Source: Candidatus Nitrosopumilus koreensis AR1 (GTDB lineage: Archaea; Thermoproteota; Nitrososphaeria; Nitrososphaerales; Nitrosopumilaceae). Taken from it: a DNA stretch of 32,000 nucleotides. Each line of letters begins with the position of its first letter. Position 1 is the first letter of the stretch. The DNA is taken from contig NC_018655.1 of assembly GCF_000299365.1 (NCBI RefSeq), positions 420,001 to 452,000 on the forward strand, read 5' to 3'. Both the position numbers and the translations under genes were made by a program. This document shows positions 1-11,021 of this stretch, piece by piece. A model generated the notes under the pieces. The model worked only from the letters and a program-made list of their open reading frames with translations, was not told where the DNA came from and did no database searches.

Positions 1-76
1 GGCTCAGGAACAGGCTCAGGAACAGGCTCAGGAACAGGCTCAGGAACAGGCTCAGGAACAGGCTCAGGAACAGGCT
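1..76 (+). repeat. Perfect 12-bp tandem repeat GGCTCAGGAACA x6 plus 4 nt, in frame, encoding (GSGT)n. The array runs off the 5' edge of the window.
   Basis: Read directly: units at 1-12, 13-24, 25-36, 37-48, 49-60 and 61-72 are identical, then GGCT. Frame 1 is open and continuous with ORF 91..459. Confidence 0.95.
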
Positions 77-459
77 ATGATGATGACCTTTTGAGTATAT
101 TATCTGAAAAAAGTGGATTGGACAAAGAATCTTTATTGAATGTTTTAACATTTGAAAAAAATCAATTAATTTTACTTAGAGTAAAAGGTGATTCTATAGC
201 TGACCAATACTTCTATTGTTCATTAATGATTCTTGCATTTTGGAAAATTTGTAAAAATATGGACTATGTTTCAAATGTGAAACTTGGCTTTCCAATGTCT
301 AGATATGGAATCAATACAAGGAATTTGTCTACTACATTACAAAAAAAGAAGTATCATGAGTTCATTATTTCAAAAGGAAAAGGAAAATCAAAAGAGTATC
401 GTATTACGACTAAAGGAATCCAAAAAGCTTTTGAAACTCTTTCTGAACTTTCACAATAG
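1..459 (+). CDS. 5'-truncated hypothetical protein: (GSGT)n linker followed by a ~125-aa C-terminal domain with a winged-helix-like tail (KGKGKSKEYRITTKGIQKAFETL)
   Basis: Position 1 is in frame with track ORF 91..459 and there is no stop in 1-90, so the real gene starts upstream of the window. The function call rests only on a weak wHTH-like pattern. Confidence 0.6.
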   Translation, partial: GSGTGSGTGSGTGSGTGSGTGSGTGYDDDLLSILSEKSGLDKESLLNVLTFEKNQLILLRVKGDSIADQYFYCSLMILAFWKICKNMDYVSNVKLGFPMSRYGINTRNLSTTLQKKKYHEFIISKGKGKSKEYRITTKGIQKAFETLSELSQ

Positions 460-1887: not shown

Positions 1888-3228
1888 TTATAAATTAATT
1901 TTTGCGAGTTTCTTTGAAAATACTTTTCTAAAGAAATCTTCTCCAAGATCTTCAAAGTATTGTATGACCATTTTATCCAAGTCTGGCTTGATTGCTTCAT
2001 ACTCTTTTTGACTATTCTCTAGTTTCACCTGTTTTTCCTCTAGAATCTTGATCTTTTCTTCAAGTTGCTTTTTCTCAATTTGTTCTTGTTCTTCTTTCTC
2101 TATTGCAGTCTTCAAACTTAGAGGCTTTCCACATTTAGAACAAAGTTTGGCATCATAGGAGTTTGGCACATCACAAATTTTGCAGATTCTTGGCTTGTTG
2201 ACCAAATCCACTCCTTTGGAACTTGACATGCCATAGTGCTTGAACATGGCCTCTTCTACATCTGAATTCATCATGTGCTCGTATCTTCCAGGCATTTTTG
2301 AGCCTGATGACCATCCGTATCTCTTCTTTTGAAGTGATTCTGTGAGAAACATTCCAGTTCTAGTAGCTCCTGTATGACGAAATAGATTTGGCCAAACTCT
2401 TTTGTGGATTTGCGCAACATCGCAAATTCTCTGTAATCTTTTTCTCATTGCAGCATACGACCATGCCTCTCCATACTTTTTGTCATCCATTGCAATCCAT
2501 AATGGTGCTTCAGGATCAGAGTTGTTTGGATGTTTGTCAAAATATGATGCCAAGTCTGGCACACACTCTATCACTCTTACTGGTCTTGGACCTGTCTTTC
2601 CATCAACTACAATGATTGCACCTCTATCATCAAACTTTACGTGTTTTATTTGGCGACTCAAGATTTCCCCTGGTCTGCAAGCCAAGTCTGAAAACGTATG
2701 AACAAACGCTCTGTCTCTAAGATTCTCTCCACATGCTTTCAGTAACGAATTCTTTTCAGATTCTGTGATTAGCATATCTGCAGTCAGGTTCTCTCTTGGT
2801 TTTCTGACACGAATCCATGAAGTCTCTGTAGGATCTCCAACTTGTTTTTGGTCTCTTGAACCACGTTTTATCCATCTGTAGAAATTCTTTAGAATTTTTT
2901 TGTGGTCTGCAGTTGTGTTTGTCTCTTGTCCGCCTTTGCTGAATTTTTTGTTAAAATTGTAAACAAGCTCTTCCATGTCTTCTTTGCTTGCATCAATCCA
3001 ATCTTTGTTTAGCATTCTTGAGAGACTAAGTATTGTTCCAAGAACCTTTGAGCGTCTTGCATCTGATAGTGATTCGTTTACCAAGACCCGGTCAAATTTC
3101 TTGATTAATTCTACGTTGTTTTGACTCAGGTCTTTTTCCATCAATGCAAAGGTTCTGGTGATAATCTTGTCATAATTGTATAATCTGATCGAGCAATGCT
3201 TTGGGCTTGAAATGTGCTGTTTTGACAT
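1888..3228 (-). CDS. Tyrosine recombinase / integrase with C-terminal zinc ribbon and coiled-coil extension
   Basis: Catalytic pattern: LACRPGEI (Arg I), DGKTGPRPV (Lys), LFRHTGAT (Arg II-His), YGWSS and PGRYEH (Tyr nucleophile). The tail has CKICDVPNSYDAKLCSKCGKP followed by an EEQEQIEKKQLEEKIKILEEKQ heptad-like stretch. The start codon lies 44 nt from the 3' end of the tRNA. Confidence 0.85.
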   Translation of the reverse strand: MSKQHISSPKHCSIRLYNYDKIITRTFALMEKDLSQNNVELIKKFDRVLVNESLSDARRSKVLGTILSLSRMLNKDWIDASKEDMEELVYNFNKKFSKGGQETNTTADHKKILKNFYRWIKRGSRDQKQVGDPTETSWIRVRKPRENLTADMLITESEKNSLLKACGENLRDRAFVHTFSDLACRPGEILSRQIKHVKFDDRGAIIVVDGKTGPRPVRVIECVPDLASYFDKHPNNSDPEAPLWIAMDDKKYGEAWSYAAMRKRLQRICDVAQIHKRVWPNLFRHTGATRTGMFLTESLQKKRYGWSSGSKMPGRYEHMMNSDVEEAMFKHYGMSSSKGVDLVNKPRICKICDVPNSYDAKLCSKCGKPLSLKTAIEKEEQEQIEKKQLEEKIKILEEKQVKLENSQKEYEAIKPDLDKMVIQYFEDLGEDFFRKVFSKKLAKINL

Positions 3229-3272
3229 TCTAGTATATGATATACTGGCAGAGTATTAAACCAGAATGACAA

Positions 3273-3347
3273 TGCTCCCACCGGGATTTGAACCCGGGTC
3301 ACAGCCTTGAGAGGGCTGTATGCTTAACCGGACTACACTATAGGAGC
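3273..3347 (-). tRNA. tRNA-Glu (anticodon CUC), 75 nt, no encoded CCA
   Basis: Manual fold of the reverse complement: acceptor GCTCCTA/TGGGAGC, anticodon stem CAGCC/GGCTG with loop CT-CTC-AA, T arm CCGGG-TTCAAAT-CCCGG, discriminator A. Confidence 0.9.
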
Positions 3348-3460: not shown

Positions 3461-3976
3461 ATGGATTTGAAAAAACTTGCTGAAAGACTAGAGTTATCTG
3501 ATTTTCCTGCAGGTTTAGGGGGGTGTAGAATTTCTGAGAACTTTTTTGATTCATGTGGATACGATGTTATAGTTTTTGATGAACAATCGATTCCTGATCA
3601 AATCGTGCAAATTGATGATGACTATATTGTACTTCATCATGGGACATTTTCTGAAACAAATTCAAAAAAACTCTTGCAATATGATGATCTGAAAATCATT
3701 CAAGATGACTCTTGGGAACTTCGTATGTTTTTATCAAAAATTAAAGAAAAACGATCCTCTTTGTTTGCTGACTTCGCTAAAAACTCCTTGATAGAATCGA
3801 TGTTTTGTTGCCAAAAGACCAAAGAAGCAATTGATAATTCCAATGAATTTTCTCCATGCTGGCAAAAATGTGCGTCATTTTATTTGGCTGATGCAATTGC
3901 ATCATTGAATAATCAACGACTAGGACCTACACACATGCTTAACTCTCTGAGAAGACTTAAAAAAAACTCCTGTTAA
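3461..3976 (+). CDS. Hypothetical protein, probably the N-terminal part of a ~300-aa protein interrupted at an A8 run
   Basis: 171-aa ORF. Its stop follows the A8 run 3959-3966. The frame of the next ORF is already open from 3951. Confidence 0.6.
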   Translation: MDLKKLAERLELSDFPAGLGGCRISENFFDSCGYDVIVFDEQSIPDQIVQIDDDYIVLHHGTFSETNSKKLLQYDDLKIIQDDSWELRMFLSKIKEKRSSLFADFAKNSLIESMFCCQKTKEAIDNSNEFSPCWQKCASFYLADAIASLNNQRLGPTHMLNSLRRLKKNSC

Positions 3977-4043
3977 TGAGCACATCTCTGTTGTAACTCA
4001 GACAGTTGGTATAGAAAGGGCCACGCTTGTTCTGCTGGAACGT

Positions 4044-4346
4044 ATGGTAAAATCCACTATTGGATTTAATGATATGGTTAATCAAAACGACTCTTCCCAA
4101 ATTATTCAAAGAAAGTATGACTATTTTGTAAAAAATTCAATGATCTCTGATTGCTATTTTTACCTAGGTTACATCAACAAGGATAACTTCATAAAAATCA
4201 AAGATACGCTAACCCGGAACCCTGATCTAATCCATGTATTAAAAACTGCATTTGATATTGAGGCTGACTCTAATGTCTTGCTACAACAGGCTGATCTTAT
4301 TCAAAATTCTTGTAATGTCTTGCTTGCCGCAGGCTTGAAACAATAA
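4044..4346 (+). CDS. Hypothetical protein, probably the C-terminal part of the 3461..3976 gene
   Basis: 100-aa ORF. The same frame is stop-free for 31 codons upstream (3951-4043) and reads plausibly (TPVNEHISVVTQTVGIERATLVLLER). Confidence 0.5.
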   Translation: MVKSTIGFNDMVNQNDSSQIIQRKYDYFVKNSMISDCYFYLGYINKDNFIKIKDTLTRNPDLIHVLKTAFDIEADSNVLLQQADLIQNSCNVLLAAGLKQ

Positions 4347-4397
4347 CTTCTATCCTTTTGTACTAACCTTTTAAAATAAGTAAGATTATGATTTGTC

Positions 4398-4541
4398 ATG
4401 ACAGATCAAGCATGTGGATGCGAAGCTGATAGCGGCGATCCTGATTATGCATGTGATTGTGCAATGCAAGGTCATTGCATCTGTAGTGCAGATTGCAAAT
4501 GTAACACTGACGTTTGTAAAGAAGCTACTAAAGACATGTAA
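4398..4541 (+). CDS. 47-aa Cys-rich small protein, metallothionein-like (9 Cys, four CxC motifs, 1 His)
   Basis: Hand translation: MTDQACGCEADSGDPDYACDCAMQGHCICSADCKCNTDVCKEATKDM. It has an ATG start and a TAA stop. TTTTAAAATA lies 20-29 nt upstream. It is below the size cut-off of the ORF track. Confidence 0.55.
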   Translation: MTDQACGCEADSGDPDYACDCAMQGHCICSADCKCNTDVCKEATKDM

Positions 4542-4576
4542 TTGGATTTTTCCAATTTTTTCTTTTATTTTTAAAA

Positions 4577-4744
4577 TTATTCTTCGTCTTCCTCAAAACC
4601 CCACGATTTCACCAATTCTTTTTGGAACTTGTCGTTTTGTTTTGAATCTAGTGCAAATCCGCAATTTTTGTGGGTTGGGACAACAGTCATTCCATCTAAC
4701 TTGAATTCAACTTCATACAAGTGAACTTTTGGGCATTCACACAT
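4577..4744 (-). CDS. 55-aa small protein with N-terminal CxC and an internal H-x-x-C, ending in an acidic tail
   Basis: Hand translation codon by codon: MCECPKVHLYEVEFKLDGMTVVPTHKNCGFALDSKQNDKFQKELVKSWGFEEDEE. It is convergent with 4398..4541. A/T-rich TATA-like sequence lies upstream (4760-4775). Confidence 0.45.
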   Translation of the reverse strand: MCECPKVHLYEVEFKLDGMTVVPTHKNCGFALDSKQNDKFQKELVKSWGFEEDEE

Positions 4745-4837: not shown

Positions 4838-6307
4838 TTGAAAACAATATTTCTAATATTTCCAATAATTATGGGACTTCTTTTAGGTACTGCATTGTTG
4901 CCATCTGCATCTGCACAATTCAATTCTGCAGGTGGTGTTGACAAAGAAGGAACATGGTACGTTGGTGAAGGTCTCAAAAAAGGAGATTATTTTTCATATA
5001 AAATGTGTCATGTAGATTACAAGGAATGTGCCCAATTTGAATTGGATATGTGGATCAAAGGAGACAGACAAGTTGGCAGTGAAACAAAATGGCTAGCTGA
5101 AGTTGTTGTTTATGATGGCAACAAGGTAATTGTTGGTGAAATGGAATTGGGAAAAATTGCCCCTGAACCAACTGGTGGCAGTGAGTCATTAGGAGTCTAT
5201 CGTGGTGCATTCAAGTCTTCAATAGCATGGCTATCTGCGTTTGCCACTGCTGATGGAAGTGCCGGTGGCAAAGGTCCAAAAGCATTCAGTGCTGCCTCTT
5301 GGGGAAAAATTGGAAACATTGGTGGTGAACAAGTACTTCCACTTGCACTTGAAACAGTCACTGTTCCATCTGGAACTTGGGATACTGTTTTAATTGGATG
5401 GAAGACTGGTGGTTATTCTAGTAAAGTTTGGATTGTAGATGAATTTCCATTTCCTGTAAAGGCTCTTACTTTGACTCATGTTTCAGAAGGAATTCCTCCA
5501 ACTGAATATAAATTTGAATTATTGGACTATAAAGAAAACGTGACCAGCAGTCCTTTTGAAGGAATAGTTTCAACTGCTGATATTTTTCAAGCACAAGGAT
5601 GTGAAACTGATTTTGAAAGAACGTCTAGTGTGAAAAAACCCACAAAGAACTTCTCTTACCAAGTACGTGCATTTTACGGTCCTGAAGATCCTGTTCAAGG
5701 ATGTGAAATGCAATGGCTGATAGAATTCATCAGCAAATATGATGACACTGAATATCTCAATCAGGTTCAGTTTGATGTCTTAGTTGTAGATGATAATTTG
5801 ACTCCTTTGAGATCTCTTGCACAAGAAGAAGGTCGGCAGTACCTCTACTCCCCATCTGGTCAACATCTTATTGATATGATAGTTGAAGAAGAGCCTGGAA
5901 CTGTAAATTATGTTATTTGGATTTATGGTCTCGCACCTGAAGGAATTGCCCCCTCGACCGCTACTGATTATTTGAAAATCCCACTAACTGTGTATCCTGC
6001 TGATGGGAGTGTTATTCCGGACGTACAACCCACAACAGCAATTCCTGCATGGATAAAGAACAATGCTGGTTGGTGGGCAGATGGTGCAATTGACGATAAC
6101 TCGTTTGTTCAAGGAATCCAATTCTTAATTAAAGAAGGAATTATGAAGATTCCACCAACTGCACAAGGAACTGGCTCTTCTAATGAAATCCCTTCTTGGA
6201 TTAAACAAAACGCTGCATGGTGGGCAGATGGTGCAATTGACGATAACTCGTTTGTTCAAGGAATCCAATTCTTAATTAAAGAAGGAATTATGAAAATTTC
6301 TTCTTAA
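4838..6307 (+). CDS. Secreted protein of unknown function with a duplicated Trp-rich C-terminal module
   Basis: Signal-peptide-like N-terminus MKTIFLIFPIIMGLLLGTALLPSASA/QF, using a TTG start (the first ATG, at 4871, would truncate it). The C-terminus has two copies of IP(A/S)WIK(N/Q)NA(G/A)WWADGAIDDNSFVQGIQFLIKEGIMKI. Confidence 0.85.
   Translation: MKTIFLIFPIIMGLLLGTALLPSASAQFNSAGGVDKEGTWYVGEGLKKGDYFSYKMCHVDYKECAQFELDMWIKGDRQVGSETKWLAEVVVYDGNKVIVGEMELGKIAPEPTGGSESLGVYRGAFKSSIAWLSAFATADGSAGGKGPKAFSAASWGKIGNIGGEQVLPLALETVTVPSGTWDTVLIGWKTGGYSSKVWIVDEFPFPVKALTLTHVSEGIPPTEYKFELLDYKENVTSSPFEGIVSTADIFQAQGCETDFERTSSVKKPTKNFSYQVRAFYGPEDPVQGCEMQWLIEFISKYDDTEYLNQVQFDVLVVDDNLTPLRSLAQEEGRQYLYSPSGQHLIDMIVEEEPGTVNYVIWIYGLAPEGIAPSTATDYLKIPLTVYPADGSVIPDVQPTTAIPAWIKNNAGWWADGAIDDNSFVQGIQFLIKEGIMKIPPTAQGTGSSNEIPSWIKQNAAWWADGAIDDNSFVQGIQFLIKEGIMKISS
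6071..6294 (+). repeat. Intragenic direct repeat: two identical 77-bp copies (6071-6147 and 6218-6294), period 147 bp
   Basis: Direct comparison of the two stretches TGGTGGGCAGATGGTGCAATTGACGATAACTCG...GGAATTATGAA. Confidence 0.95.
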
Positions 6308-10307: not shown

Positions 10308-11021
10308 ATGTCTGCTGAAAACCCTGATGATGGATTGACCGAAAAAATCAAAATTTTGGCTACGGATGATGAAAAAATAAAGTCATTTGGAGAGCTCTTT
10401 ACAAATGATTCTAGCCGTGAAATATTACAATTACTGTTTAATGAAGAATTAACTGCAAATCAGATTGCACAAAAAACTGACATCTCACTACAATTGGTAA
10501 AATACCATCTGAATAAACTACAAGATTTGGGTGTCGTAAAGATTACAAAGATTGAAAAAAACTCCAAATCTCAGGACATGAAAGTTTACTCTGCTACAAA
10601 ATTTAGTATTGTGATTGTTCCTCCAAAACTTTCTGAAAAAACTAAAGAAAGTAAATTACTTGTTCGCTCTTTTAGACACATCTACAAAGTAGCAGGATTT
10701 GCTATTGCAACTGGCGTTTCTGGATTGTTGTCTTTGTCTCAATTGCAAACAAAACCAATACCGGTAAGTGACACAAGACAATTTACTGCCCCTGAAGAAT
10801 TATCCAAACGATTAGAGTCTGCTGATGAATCAGCCAGTTCTATGATTGCTTCAGCGCCTGTAGCAGAATCTGAACCACAAGATTTTGCACAAGGCGGTTT
10901 AGACATTACAGAAACTACACTTGATTCTGGCATTGATCTGTTTATTCCATTTGTAATCATTACAATGATTCTTGGTGGATTGACCGCTTACTATGTGTGG
11001 AAGTACAAAAAATCTAATTAA
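10308..11021 (+). CDS. ArsR-type winged-helix transcription factor with central and C-terminal transmembrane segments
   Basis: N-terminal SREILQLLFNEELTANQIAQKTDISLQLVKYHLNKLQDLGVV is a typical ArsR/SmtB-like HTH. Hydrophobic segments: VAGFAIATGVSGLLSLSQL and LFIPFVIITMILGGLTAYYVW. Confidence 0.8.
   Translation: MSAENPDDGLTEKIKILATDDEKIKSFGELFTNDSSREILQLLFNEELTANQIAQKTDISLQLVKYHLNKLQDLGVVKITKIEKNSKSQDMKVYSATKFSIVIVPPKLSEKTKESKLLVRSFRHIYKVAGFAIATGVSGLLSLSQLQTKPIPVSDTRQFTAPEELSKRLESADESASSMIASAPVAESEPQDFAQGGLDITETTLDSGIDLFIPFVIITMILGGLTAYYVWKYKKSN

Follow-up and report, generated by a model that had tools for sequence, protein, structure and literature searches.

The nine-cysteine β-domain of vertebrate metallothioneins (Pfam PF00131), as found in rat MT-2 (PDB 2mrt) and in an MT-1A fusion (PDB 9q7p), is the closest, though weakly matching, described counterpart of the protein considered here. 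This protein is 47 residues long, rich in Cys, and encoded at positions 4398..4541 (forward strand) of a 32,000-nucleotide (nt) stretch of the genome of Candidatus Nitrosopumilus koreensis AR1 (NC_018655.1, positions 420,001 to 452,000), the whole of which we call the window. Like the archaeal protein, the vertebrate β-domain has nine Cys within ~30–45 residues; it has no regular secondary structure, and the archaeal protein may likewise have none, to judge from a poor AlphaFold model.

Other described systems share some of these features. SmtA and BmtA (family 14, PF02069) are likewise small prokaryotic Cys-rich proteins; SmtA has nine Cys and forms a Zn4Cys9His2 cluster. Its zinc-finger-like fold contains aromatic residues and two His that are essential; the only His of the archaeal protein (His26), by contrast, is not conserved. 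Fungal copper metallothioneins (Neurospora crassa Cu-MT and yeast Cup1) and mycobacterial MymT are short, dominated by CxC pairs, and bind Cu(I) clusters. Their Cys differ in number and spacing from those of the archaeal protein, the comparison consisting of the absence of Pfam and PDB matches to them, and the analogy with these proteins is the basis of the copper hypothesis discussed below. Zn3Cys9 domains, i.e., the pre-SET domain and the CXC or TCR domain of MSL2/LIN54, have nine Cys with several CxC pairs and hold a structural, triangular three-zinc cluster that mediates binding; they differ from the archaeal module in Cys spacing and belong to eukaryotic nuclear proteins. Csp1 and Csp3 are Cys-lined Cu(I) stores of methanotrophs, whose copper membrane monooxygenase, on which these hosts depend, is related to archaeal ammonia monooxygenase. 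The analogy with Csp1 and Csp3 is one of role only, as they are four-helix bundles of ~120–140 residues with no sequence or predicted structural likeness to the archaeal protein.

Few cells in the ocean are as abundant as marine ammonia-oxidizing archaea, which rely heavily on copper enzymes. Full-text literature searches, with subscription-only papers outside their coverage, turned up no article on a metallothionein from Thaumarchaeota or other archaea and no report of experimental work on the Cys-rich protein; this agrees with the remark of the first-pass annotation of the window that archaeal metallothioneins are essentially uncharacterised. A metallothionein-like reading of the protein is reasonable but unproven, and UniRef and IMG already express it through their automatic names. 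The new elements are the signature of nine Cys, in which G, D, and Q are invariant and no His is conserved, the restriction of the family to Nitrosopumilales, the conserved promoter of a probably leaderless type and the conserved gene block and, above all, the use of the same module as the predicted cytoplasmic tail of a widespread membrane protein.

The Cys-rich protein of the window

Translation of 4398..4541, from ATG to TAA, gives MTDQACGCEADSGDPDYACDCAMQGHCICSADCKCNTDVCKEATKDM, exactly as first proposed, with the pairs CGC, CDC, CIC, and CKC and one further Cys. The nine Cys (positions 6, 8, 19, 21, 27, 29, 33, 35, and 40) make up 19.1% of the residues and follow the pattern CxC-x10-CxC-x5-CxC-x3-CxC-x4-C. 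The protein has a mass of 4.96 kDa and an isoelectric point (pI) of 4.05, with 10 Asp/Glu against 3 Lys, and includes one His (His26) and one Tyr (Tyr17). Its Cys fraction is the highest among the 151 ATG-initiated open reading frames (ORFs) of at least 30 residues in the window, of which it alone has more than two CxC motifs. In 100 shuffles of the window, no ORF of 60 residues or fewer had nine or more Cys; the maximum was eight, seen once. In addition, the G + C content of the gene (41.7%) is above that of the window (34.8%) and of the flanks (32–34%), as had been noticed earlier, and lies in the top 7% of 144-nt segments.

Metallothioneins are defined operationally (Kägi; Binz & Kägi) by a mass below 10 kDa, by ~15–30% Cys arranged as CxC, CxxC, or CC, and by few or no aromatic residues and His. 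The definition also asks for several metal ions per chain in metal-thiolate clusters with their typical spectroscopy, and for the lack of a stable fold when metal is absent. The 47-residue protein lies well below this mass, has 19% Cys with four CxC pairs, and has a single Tyr and a single His, so that the metallothionein-like composition put forward in the first-pass annotation is borne out by size, Cys content, CxC pairs, and scarcity of aromatic residues and His. The same source went too far in describing the protein as free of aromatic or hydrophobic core residues, since Tyr17 is present and Ile28, Val39, and Met23 are conserved. The single His that it counted is indeed found at position 26, but that position is occupied by H, A, S, T, E, or Q among relatives and is no part of the signature.

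AlphaFold2, given 33 sequences, predicts no secondary structure (predicted local distance difference test, pLDDT, 47.9), and the model is too poor for fold searches. The low pLDDT would fit a fold that depends on metal, for which it is weak evidence.

Conservation and purifying selection

Positions 4398..4541 are a real gene under strong purifying selection. Selection was analysed in 77 orthologous DNA sequences over 43 codons. The nine Cys are invariant in all 77 sequences, which belong to the sequence type referred to below as type A, and the codon of every Cys varies synonymously between TGT and TGC. The pooled proportions of synonymous (pS) and non-synonymous (pN) differences are 0.51 and 0.051, the median pairwise ratio of non-synonymous to synonymous substitution rates (dN/dS) is 0.066, and variable columns are distributed over codon positions 1, 2, and 3 as 11, 10, and 41. 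In the other two frames the substitution ratios are 2.1 and 0.84, with stop codons in 75 and 77 of the 77 sequences, respectively.

The frame with the ratio of 2.1 is that of a 96-aa ORF (4414..4704, forward strand, +1 frame), which overlaps the Cys-rich gene, the spacer that follows it, and the antisense strand of a neighbouring 55-aa gene. Its pN/pS resembles that of non-coding sequence and it is interrupted by stops inside the gene region in 75 of the 77 orthologues; it is therefore spurious, as had been suspected. The first-pass annotation had made its proposal depend on conservation of the frame and of the Cys positions in related genomes and had asked for dN/dS across them: frame and Cys positions are conserved throughout Nitrosopumilales, with all nine Cys invariant, and the dN/dS is strongly purifying.

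A search of 5.8 billion proteins yielded 67 clusters of relatives, nearly all of 47–49 residues. At least 253 species genomes encode a relative in a scan of one genome per species, the patterns of which detect only the sequence type of the window. An exhaustive profile hidden Markov model search of 1.84 billion representative proteins returned only 25 proteins at E ≤ 0.001, all of the Cys-rich family. The named members all belong to Nitrosopumilales, i.e., to Nitrosopumilus, Nitrosopelagicus, Nitrosarchaeum, Nitrosomarinus, Nitrosotalea, and sponge-associated lineages. In an assembly index, over 1,300 blocks contain the Nitrosopelagicus form.

Relation to known metal-binding families

The vertebrate metallothionein family PF00131 is the sole metallothionein-type Pfam family matched. 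Residues 18–45 align with model positions 5–32 at E 0.027 (15 bits), and 11 of 33 family members match it, the best at E 0.0074. When a broader family profile was compared with the whole PDB, the best matches were mammalian metallothionein β-domains (9q7p, E 0.032; 2mrt, E 2.7). In pairwise BLASTP with the human MT4 and SmtA sequences, both entered by hand, residues 14–46 align with residues 2–33 of MT4 (14 of 33 positions identical, seven Cys aligned, E 3e-4), and the E-value against SmtA is 0.19. The SmtA/BmtA family PF02069 gave no Pfam match at E up to 10 and thus shows no relation in sequence to the archaeal protein.

Residues 19–35 have the same CxC-x5-CxC-x3-CxC arrangement as the β-domain, so that of the β-domain spacing CxC-x5-CxC-x3-CxC-x2-CxC-x2-C the first six Cys are reproduced exactly and the seventh aligns; the match extends to 'CKC' and to the 'DP' that precedes the first aligned CxC. 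Where the vertebrate β-domain ends with CxC-x2-C, the archaeal protein instead has its N-terminal CGC (residues 6–8) and a Cys at x4. The first of these lies in an additional 13-residue N-terminal arm carrying two Cys, which the vertebrate β-domain lacks. Unlike vertebrate metallothionein, the archaeal protein has no α-domain, is acidic (pI 4.05) rather than Lys-rich, and is far more conserved at residues other than Cys; moreover, the module is limited to Nitrosopumilales and also serves as the tail of a membrane protein. The resemblance to the β-domain explains the automatic names "Metallothionein" and "metallothionein 4". Because the PF00131 score stays below the gathering threshold of 23 bits, homology has not been demonstrated, and the likeness more probably reflects convergence. 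The protein reaches the cutoff of no curated metallothionein model. On paper it would function as a β-domain does, but it is not a demonstrable member of any described metallothionein family, and convergence is the more economical reading.

The same module as the tail of membrane proteins

In 14 of 80 fetched loci, the same 47-residue module forms the C-terminal domain of an ORF of ~455 residues (e.g., L019:2699-4144; the others are L015, L016, L018, L022, L024, L027, L028, L032, L033, L036, L052, L068, and L069). From its N-terminus, this protein comprises a signal or anchor sequence, ~340 presumably extracellular residues, and one transmembrane helix. The helix is followed by a basic stop-transfer cluster (SNRSLKK), a ~45-residue linker that is almost invariant (GIDP..L.GY.TS.S.GGYQTNRGEAQL...Y...RSVY), a PPPQ-rich spacer, and the module. 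In one locus Asn-Ile replaces the Met at the junction, and the fusion is therefore a true one. The ~455-aa protein has 2,665 matches, the best 120 of which are all 445–486 residues long and "hypothetical" where named. Searches of Pfam, NCBIfam, and the PDB gave no match for it, and the AlphaFold2 model of a 461-aa fusion protein (pLDDT 36) is too poor for fold searches.

Since the module comes after the transmembrane helix and the basic cluster, it is predicted by the positive-inside rule to be cytoplasmic in the fusion proteins. There it would be in a reducing environment, in which thiolate clusters are stable.

The fused tails are of two sequence types. Type A hardly differs from the free protein; type B has the sequence EEAACGCAASAEMGSECDCEMQGSCLCDGTCRCNAEICKEQVRSMS, with the consensus EEAACGCAASAEMGSECDC.MQGSCLCD..C.CNA.ICKEQVRSMS, and is resembled by divergent free proteins of 44–48 residues. 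The nine Cys are invariant in both types of tail. A signature that holds for all forms is [AS]-C-G-C-x7-10-C-D-C-x2-Q-x2-C-x-C-x3-C-x-C-x4-C, and neither Tyr17 nor His26 is conserved across them. We considered whether gene conversion still acts between the fused tail and the free gene, and rejected this, as pairs from the same genome (83% and 91% nucleotide identity) are no closer than pairs from different genomes. Together with the weak clustering of the type-A tails, this lack of special similarity within genomes suggests that these tails stem from one replacement event and not from continuing conversion.

The module also ends a 129-aa metagenomic protein with several transmembrane segments and a weak MARVEL-like match. 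In a 103-aa metagenomic protein, the module is followed by a ~55-residue extension that by eye resembles part of a thioredoxin-like domain and may be a read-through artefact. We note that in locus L019 the neighbours of the ~455-aa gene resemble, by eye and without a family search, F420-biosynthesis genes (CofC/CofD-type) and methyltransferase genes.

A putative metal-thiolate cluster protein and the alternatives

We favour the reading, drawn by analogy and with about an even chance of being right, that the 47-residue protein is a cytoplasmic metal-thiolate cluster protein that buffers, stores, or donates Cu(I) or Zn(II) and has a membrane-tethered twin. The nine Cys, invariant in free, divergent, and fused members alike, the β-domain spacing, and the weak similarity to metallothionein β-domains point in this direction. 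A small acidic cytoplasmic protein would be made from its own promoter, probably on a leaderless mRNA, and would have no fold of its own as apo-protein. The nine Cys would fold around one polynuclear metal-thiolate cluster, as in the vertebrate β-domain, in which thiolates would bridge about three divalent ions (Zn or Cd) or which would hold several (up to ~six) Cu(I). The free protein would serve ammonia-oxidizing archaea as a small soluble buffer, store, or donor of Cu(I) or Zn(II), and a conserved protein that spans the membrane once would carry the second copy of the module, tethered at its cytoplasmic end. We infer the binding of metal, its stoichiometry, the metal concerned, the cytoplasmic location, and the physiological role, and for the identity of the metal and the link to copper the step is purely conjectural.

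Several points weigh against this assignment. Besides the PF00131 score below threshold, NCBIfam gives no match for the protein at E up to 1, and the E-values of similarity to known families are all marginal. No metal-homeostasis gene is found among the conserved neighbours in 66 stand-alone loci, and the nearest regulator, of ArsR/HTH_5 (HTH_20) type at 10308..11021, is 5.8 kb and five genes away; an ArsR/SmtB-type regulator at this distance, with no evidence of linkage, was rejected as a dedicated metal sensor. Residues other than Cys are conserved more tightly than a metal sponge needs: G7, D20, and Q24 do not vary in any type, M23, G25, and K41 are at least 90% conserved, and the whole DQACGCEADSGDPDY stretch is conserved within Nitrosopumilus. 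Finally, that the module is joined to a membrane protein by a linker that hardly varies points to signalling or to a specific partner. Because of this unusual conservation outside the Cys and the fusion to a membrane-protein tail, a structural zinc-cluster or interaction role is the main alternative and a serious one, if less likely than the favoured reading. The module would then be of Zn3Cys9 type, as in pre-SET and CXC domains, with the metal holding a fixed surface in shape for a protein or nucleic-acid partner; the tail of the membrane protein would act in cytoplasmic docking or signalling, and the free protein as a soluble competitor, adaptor, or regulator. The invariant non-Cys residues, the linker, the lack of a metal-homeostasis neighbourhood, and the occurrence of the module in two membrane architectures (the ~455-aa type-I protein and the 129-aa multi-transmembrane protein) are all in keeping with such a role. 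So is a weak match to the UBR-box zinc domain (E 0.019), obtained with a narrow profile against the PDB, but this match is lost with the broader profile, whose best matches are metallothionein β-domains, and the UBR box was rejected for this reason. Furthermore, no zinc-finger, pre-SET (PF05033), or TCR/CXC (PF03638) match was found in Pfam at E up to 10 in any of the 33 members, four CxC pairs with no CxxC are typical of thiolate clusters and not of classical zinc fingers, and AlphaFold shows no fold.

A thiol-rich scavenger against redox or nitrosative stress (nitric oxide (NO), H2O2, or hydroxylamine-derived species), or an iron–sulfur (Fe–S) carrier, is improbable. Metallothioneins also scavenge radicals and NO, and a high Cys density and a cytoplasmic location would be compatible with such a function. 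In ammonia-oxidizing archaea, NO is an intermediate and catalase is largely absent, according to the abstract of PMC6593220. Against a scavenger or carrier, the protein has no Fe–S motif (CxxCxxC...CP and similar) and no match to an Fe–S family, no redox genes adjoin it, and nine invariant Cys at set spacings point to a defined cluster geometry and not to sacrificial thiols. We regard as very improbable a ribosomally synthesized and post-translationally modified peptide, i.e., a precursor that is modified and exported as a Cys-derived chalkophore or a lanthipeptide-like product. The small size, the Cys content, and the acidity would suit such a precursor, and copper acquisition matters to ammonia-oxidizing archaea, but the conserved neighbours include no modifying enzyme, protease, or exporter, the entire sequence is conserved with no division into leader and core, and a module that ends large membrane proteins on their predicted cytoplasmic side is unlike a released peptide. 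That the ORF arose by chance and is not a gene can be dismissed with near certainty: it is short, was missed by the first ORF track, and is apparently absent from the older Nitrosopumilus maritimus SCM1 gene list in the excerpt of PMC6593220, but the comparative evidence refutes this explanation, with a dN/dS of 0.07, variation at third positions, none of 100 shuffles with a like ORF, relatives in at least 253 species genomes, a conserved promoter, and other frames broken by stops.

If the protein does bind metal clusters, then, being small and simple to express, it would open a way into metal handling in ammonia-oxidizing archaea and provide a possible marker of metal status for ocean metatranscriptomes, and the membrane-tethered copy would be an unusual architecture for a metallothionein-like domain. 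A wider proposal, which we put forward as speculative and rather doubtful, is that Nitrosopumilales evolved their own metallothionein family, convergent with the nine-Cys β-domain of animals, as a pair of free and membrane-tethered forms, the latter on the cytoplasmic tail of a conserved membrane protein exposed at the cell surface. Together they might provide a store and relay of Cu(I)/Zn for the copper-rich respiratory and ammonia-oxidizing machinery, or couple an extracellular signal to the cytoplasmic metal status. Were this to hold, archaea would have their first characterised metallothionein, and one anchored to the membrane.

Promoter and downstream region

The archaeal-type promoter (4362..4376, forward strand) consists of a B recognition element (BRE)-like ACTAACC (4362–4368) followed by the TATA box TTTTAAAA (4369–4376), which spans positions −29..−22 with its centre ~25 nt upstream of the ATG. 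A TATA-like box upstream of the gene had already been noted; it is conserved in orthologous loci. The stretch ACTAACC-TTTTAAAA-TAAGTA (4362–4382) is kept at a fixed distance from the ATG, and the motif (A)CTAACCTTTTAAAA(T/C)AAGTA is found at this distance in nearly all stand-alone loci, the most divergent of which have recognisable variants at the same position. TATA-like boxes occur at a similar distance upstream of other genes of the window as well. Because the spacing between TATA box and ATG fits, the mRNA is probably leaderless and starts at the ATG (4398).

Downstream, an intergenic spacer of 35 nt (4542..4576) separates the gene from its convergent neighbour. The spacer comprises a short AT-rich inverted repeat, TTGGA (4542–4546) and TCCAA (4551–4555), and then T-runs (4556–4572), and the inverted repeat with oligo-T 3′ of the stop codon is conserved in many loci. 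A scan of the spacer for bacterial-type terminators found none. Given the oligo-T signal typical of archaea, the spacer is probably where transcription stops.

Database status and detectability

The first-pass annotation called the gene unannotated, which is true only of the ORF track that it used. The identical protein is held by NCBI as AFS80382.1, AJM93030.1, and WP_014962771.1 ("MULTISPECIES: hypothetical protein [Nitrosopumilus]"), it appears in UniRef under the name "Metallothionein" (A0A0C5C143), and JGI/IMG names many close relatives "metallothionein 4"; the protein is in these databases as a predicted one, and the names are automatic. In AJVJ01000017.1 (GCA_000328925.1), which is 100% identical to the window over 10.5 kb, the Cys-rich gene is called.

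An excerpt of Data Set S1 of PMC6593220 lists OG1624 and OG1625, two-genome groups of "hypothetical protein", between the 489-aa and 292-aa neighbours described below; the groups were assigned by gene order in the excerpt and not by sequence, the Cys-rich gene being OG1625. The flanking SCM1 gene ids in the same excerpt, 641316098 and 641316099, are consecutive, and the Cys-rich gene is apparently missing from the older gene list for N. maritimus SCM1 on which that work relied. As far as the excerpted three-strain ortholog table goes (OG1117, OG1118, OG1624, and OG1625), the Cys-rich and 55-aa genes are present only in the two newer IMG annotations. Transcriptome and proteome studies based on SCM1 may, to go by this excerpt, never have scored either gene, and absence from the older list may be why the Cys-rich gene went unnoticed. 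In addition, the protein has no Lys before residue 34, so that its only early tryptic peptide has 34 residues. A peptide of this length with seven Cys is ill-suited to shotgun proteomics, and absence of the protein from such data is therefore uninformative.

Gene neighbourhood

Neighbourhoods were counted in the 66 stand-alone loci. The upstream neighbour, of 292–294 residues in relatives, is on the same strand in 62–63 of them. In the window this 292-aa gene (3461..4346, forward strand) is split by a frameshift into ORFs of 171 (3461..3976) and 100 residues (4044..4346), and it is intact, with 294 residues, in AJVI01000007.1 (99.97% identical); either the frameshift is recent or the assembly is in error here. 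The convergent neighbour (4577..4744, reverse strand; 61 of 66 loci) encodes 55 residues with the pattern MCxCxKxH...VPTHKNCG...LVKSWG and an acidic tail. Its Cys2, Cys4, His8, His25, and Cys28 are invariant in 59 loci, and Lys6, VPTHKNCG, and LVKSWG are invariant as well. It is probably a small zinc-binding protein; the gene is missing from loci of the Nitrosopelagicus type. Beyond it lies the gene of a 489-aa secreted protein (4838..6307, forward strand; 61 of 66 loci), which has a signal peptide, and a tetratricopeptide repeat (TPR) gene belongs to the conserved block in 54 of 66 loci. We note that the 489-aa protein has no known domain and ends in two tandem repeats of ~40 residues (IP.WIK.NA.WWADGAIDDNSFVQGIQFLIKEGIMKI). 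Family and structure searches with the 292-aa, 55-aa, 489-aa, 158-aa, and 213-aa neighbours gave nothing usable.

On the other side of the split gene, a tRNA-Glu(CTC) gene (3273..3347, reverse strand) adjoins a 446-aa tyrosine-recombinase-like gene (1888..3228, reverse strand), whose match to Phage_integrase (E 4.7e-5) is below the cutoff. This integrase accompanies the Cys-rich gene in only 9 of the 66 loci, against 54–63 for the block of the 292-aa, Cys-rich, 489-aa, and TPR genes. The Cys-rich gene therefore belongs to the core genome and is not island cargo, and transport by a mobile element was rejected. The tRNA-Glu/integrase region itself (1888..3347) may represent the margin of an integrated element that varies between strains and stops just short of the conserved block.

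Near the start of the window, a 12-nt sequence, GGAACAGGCTCA, is repeated in tandem in at least four copies (about 31..90, forward strand) and runs into the start of the first listed ORF of the window (91..459). Its translation is probably a Gly-Thr-Gly-Ser repeat, part of a gene truncated at the edge of the window.

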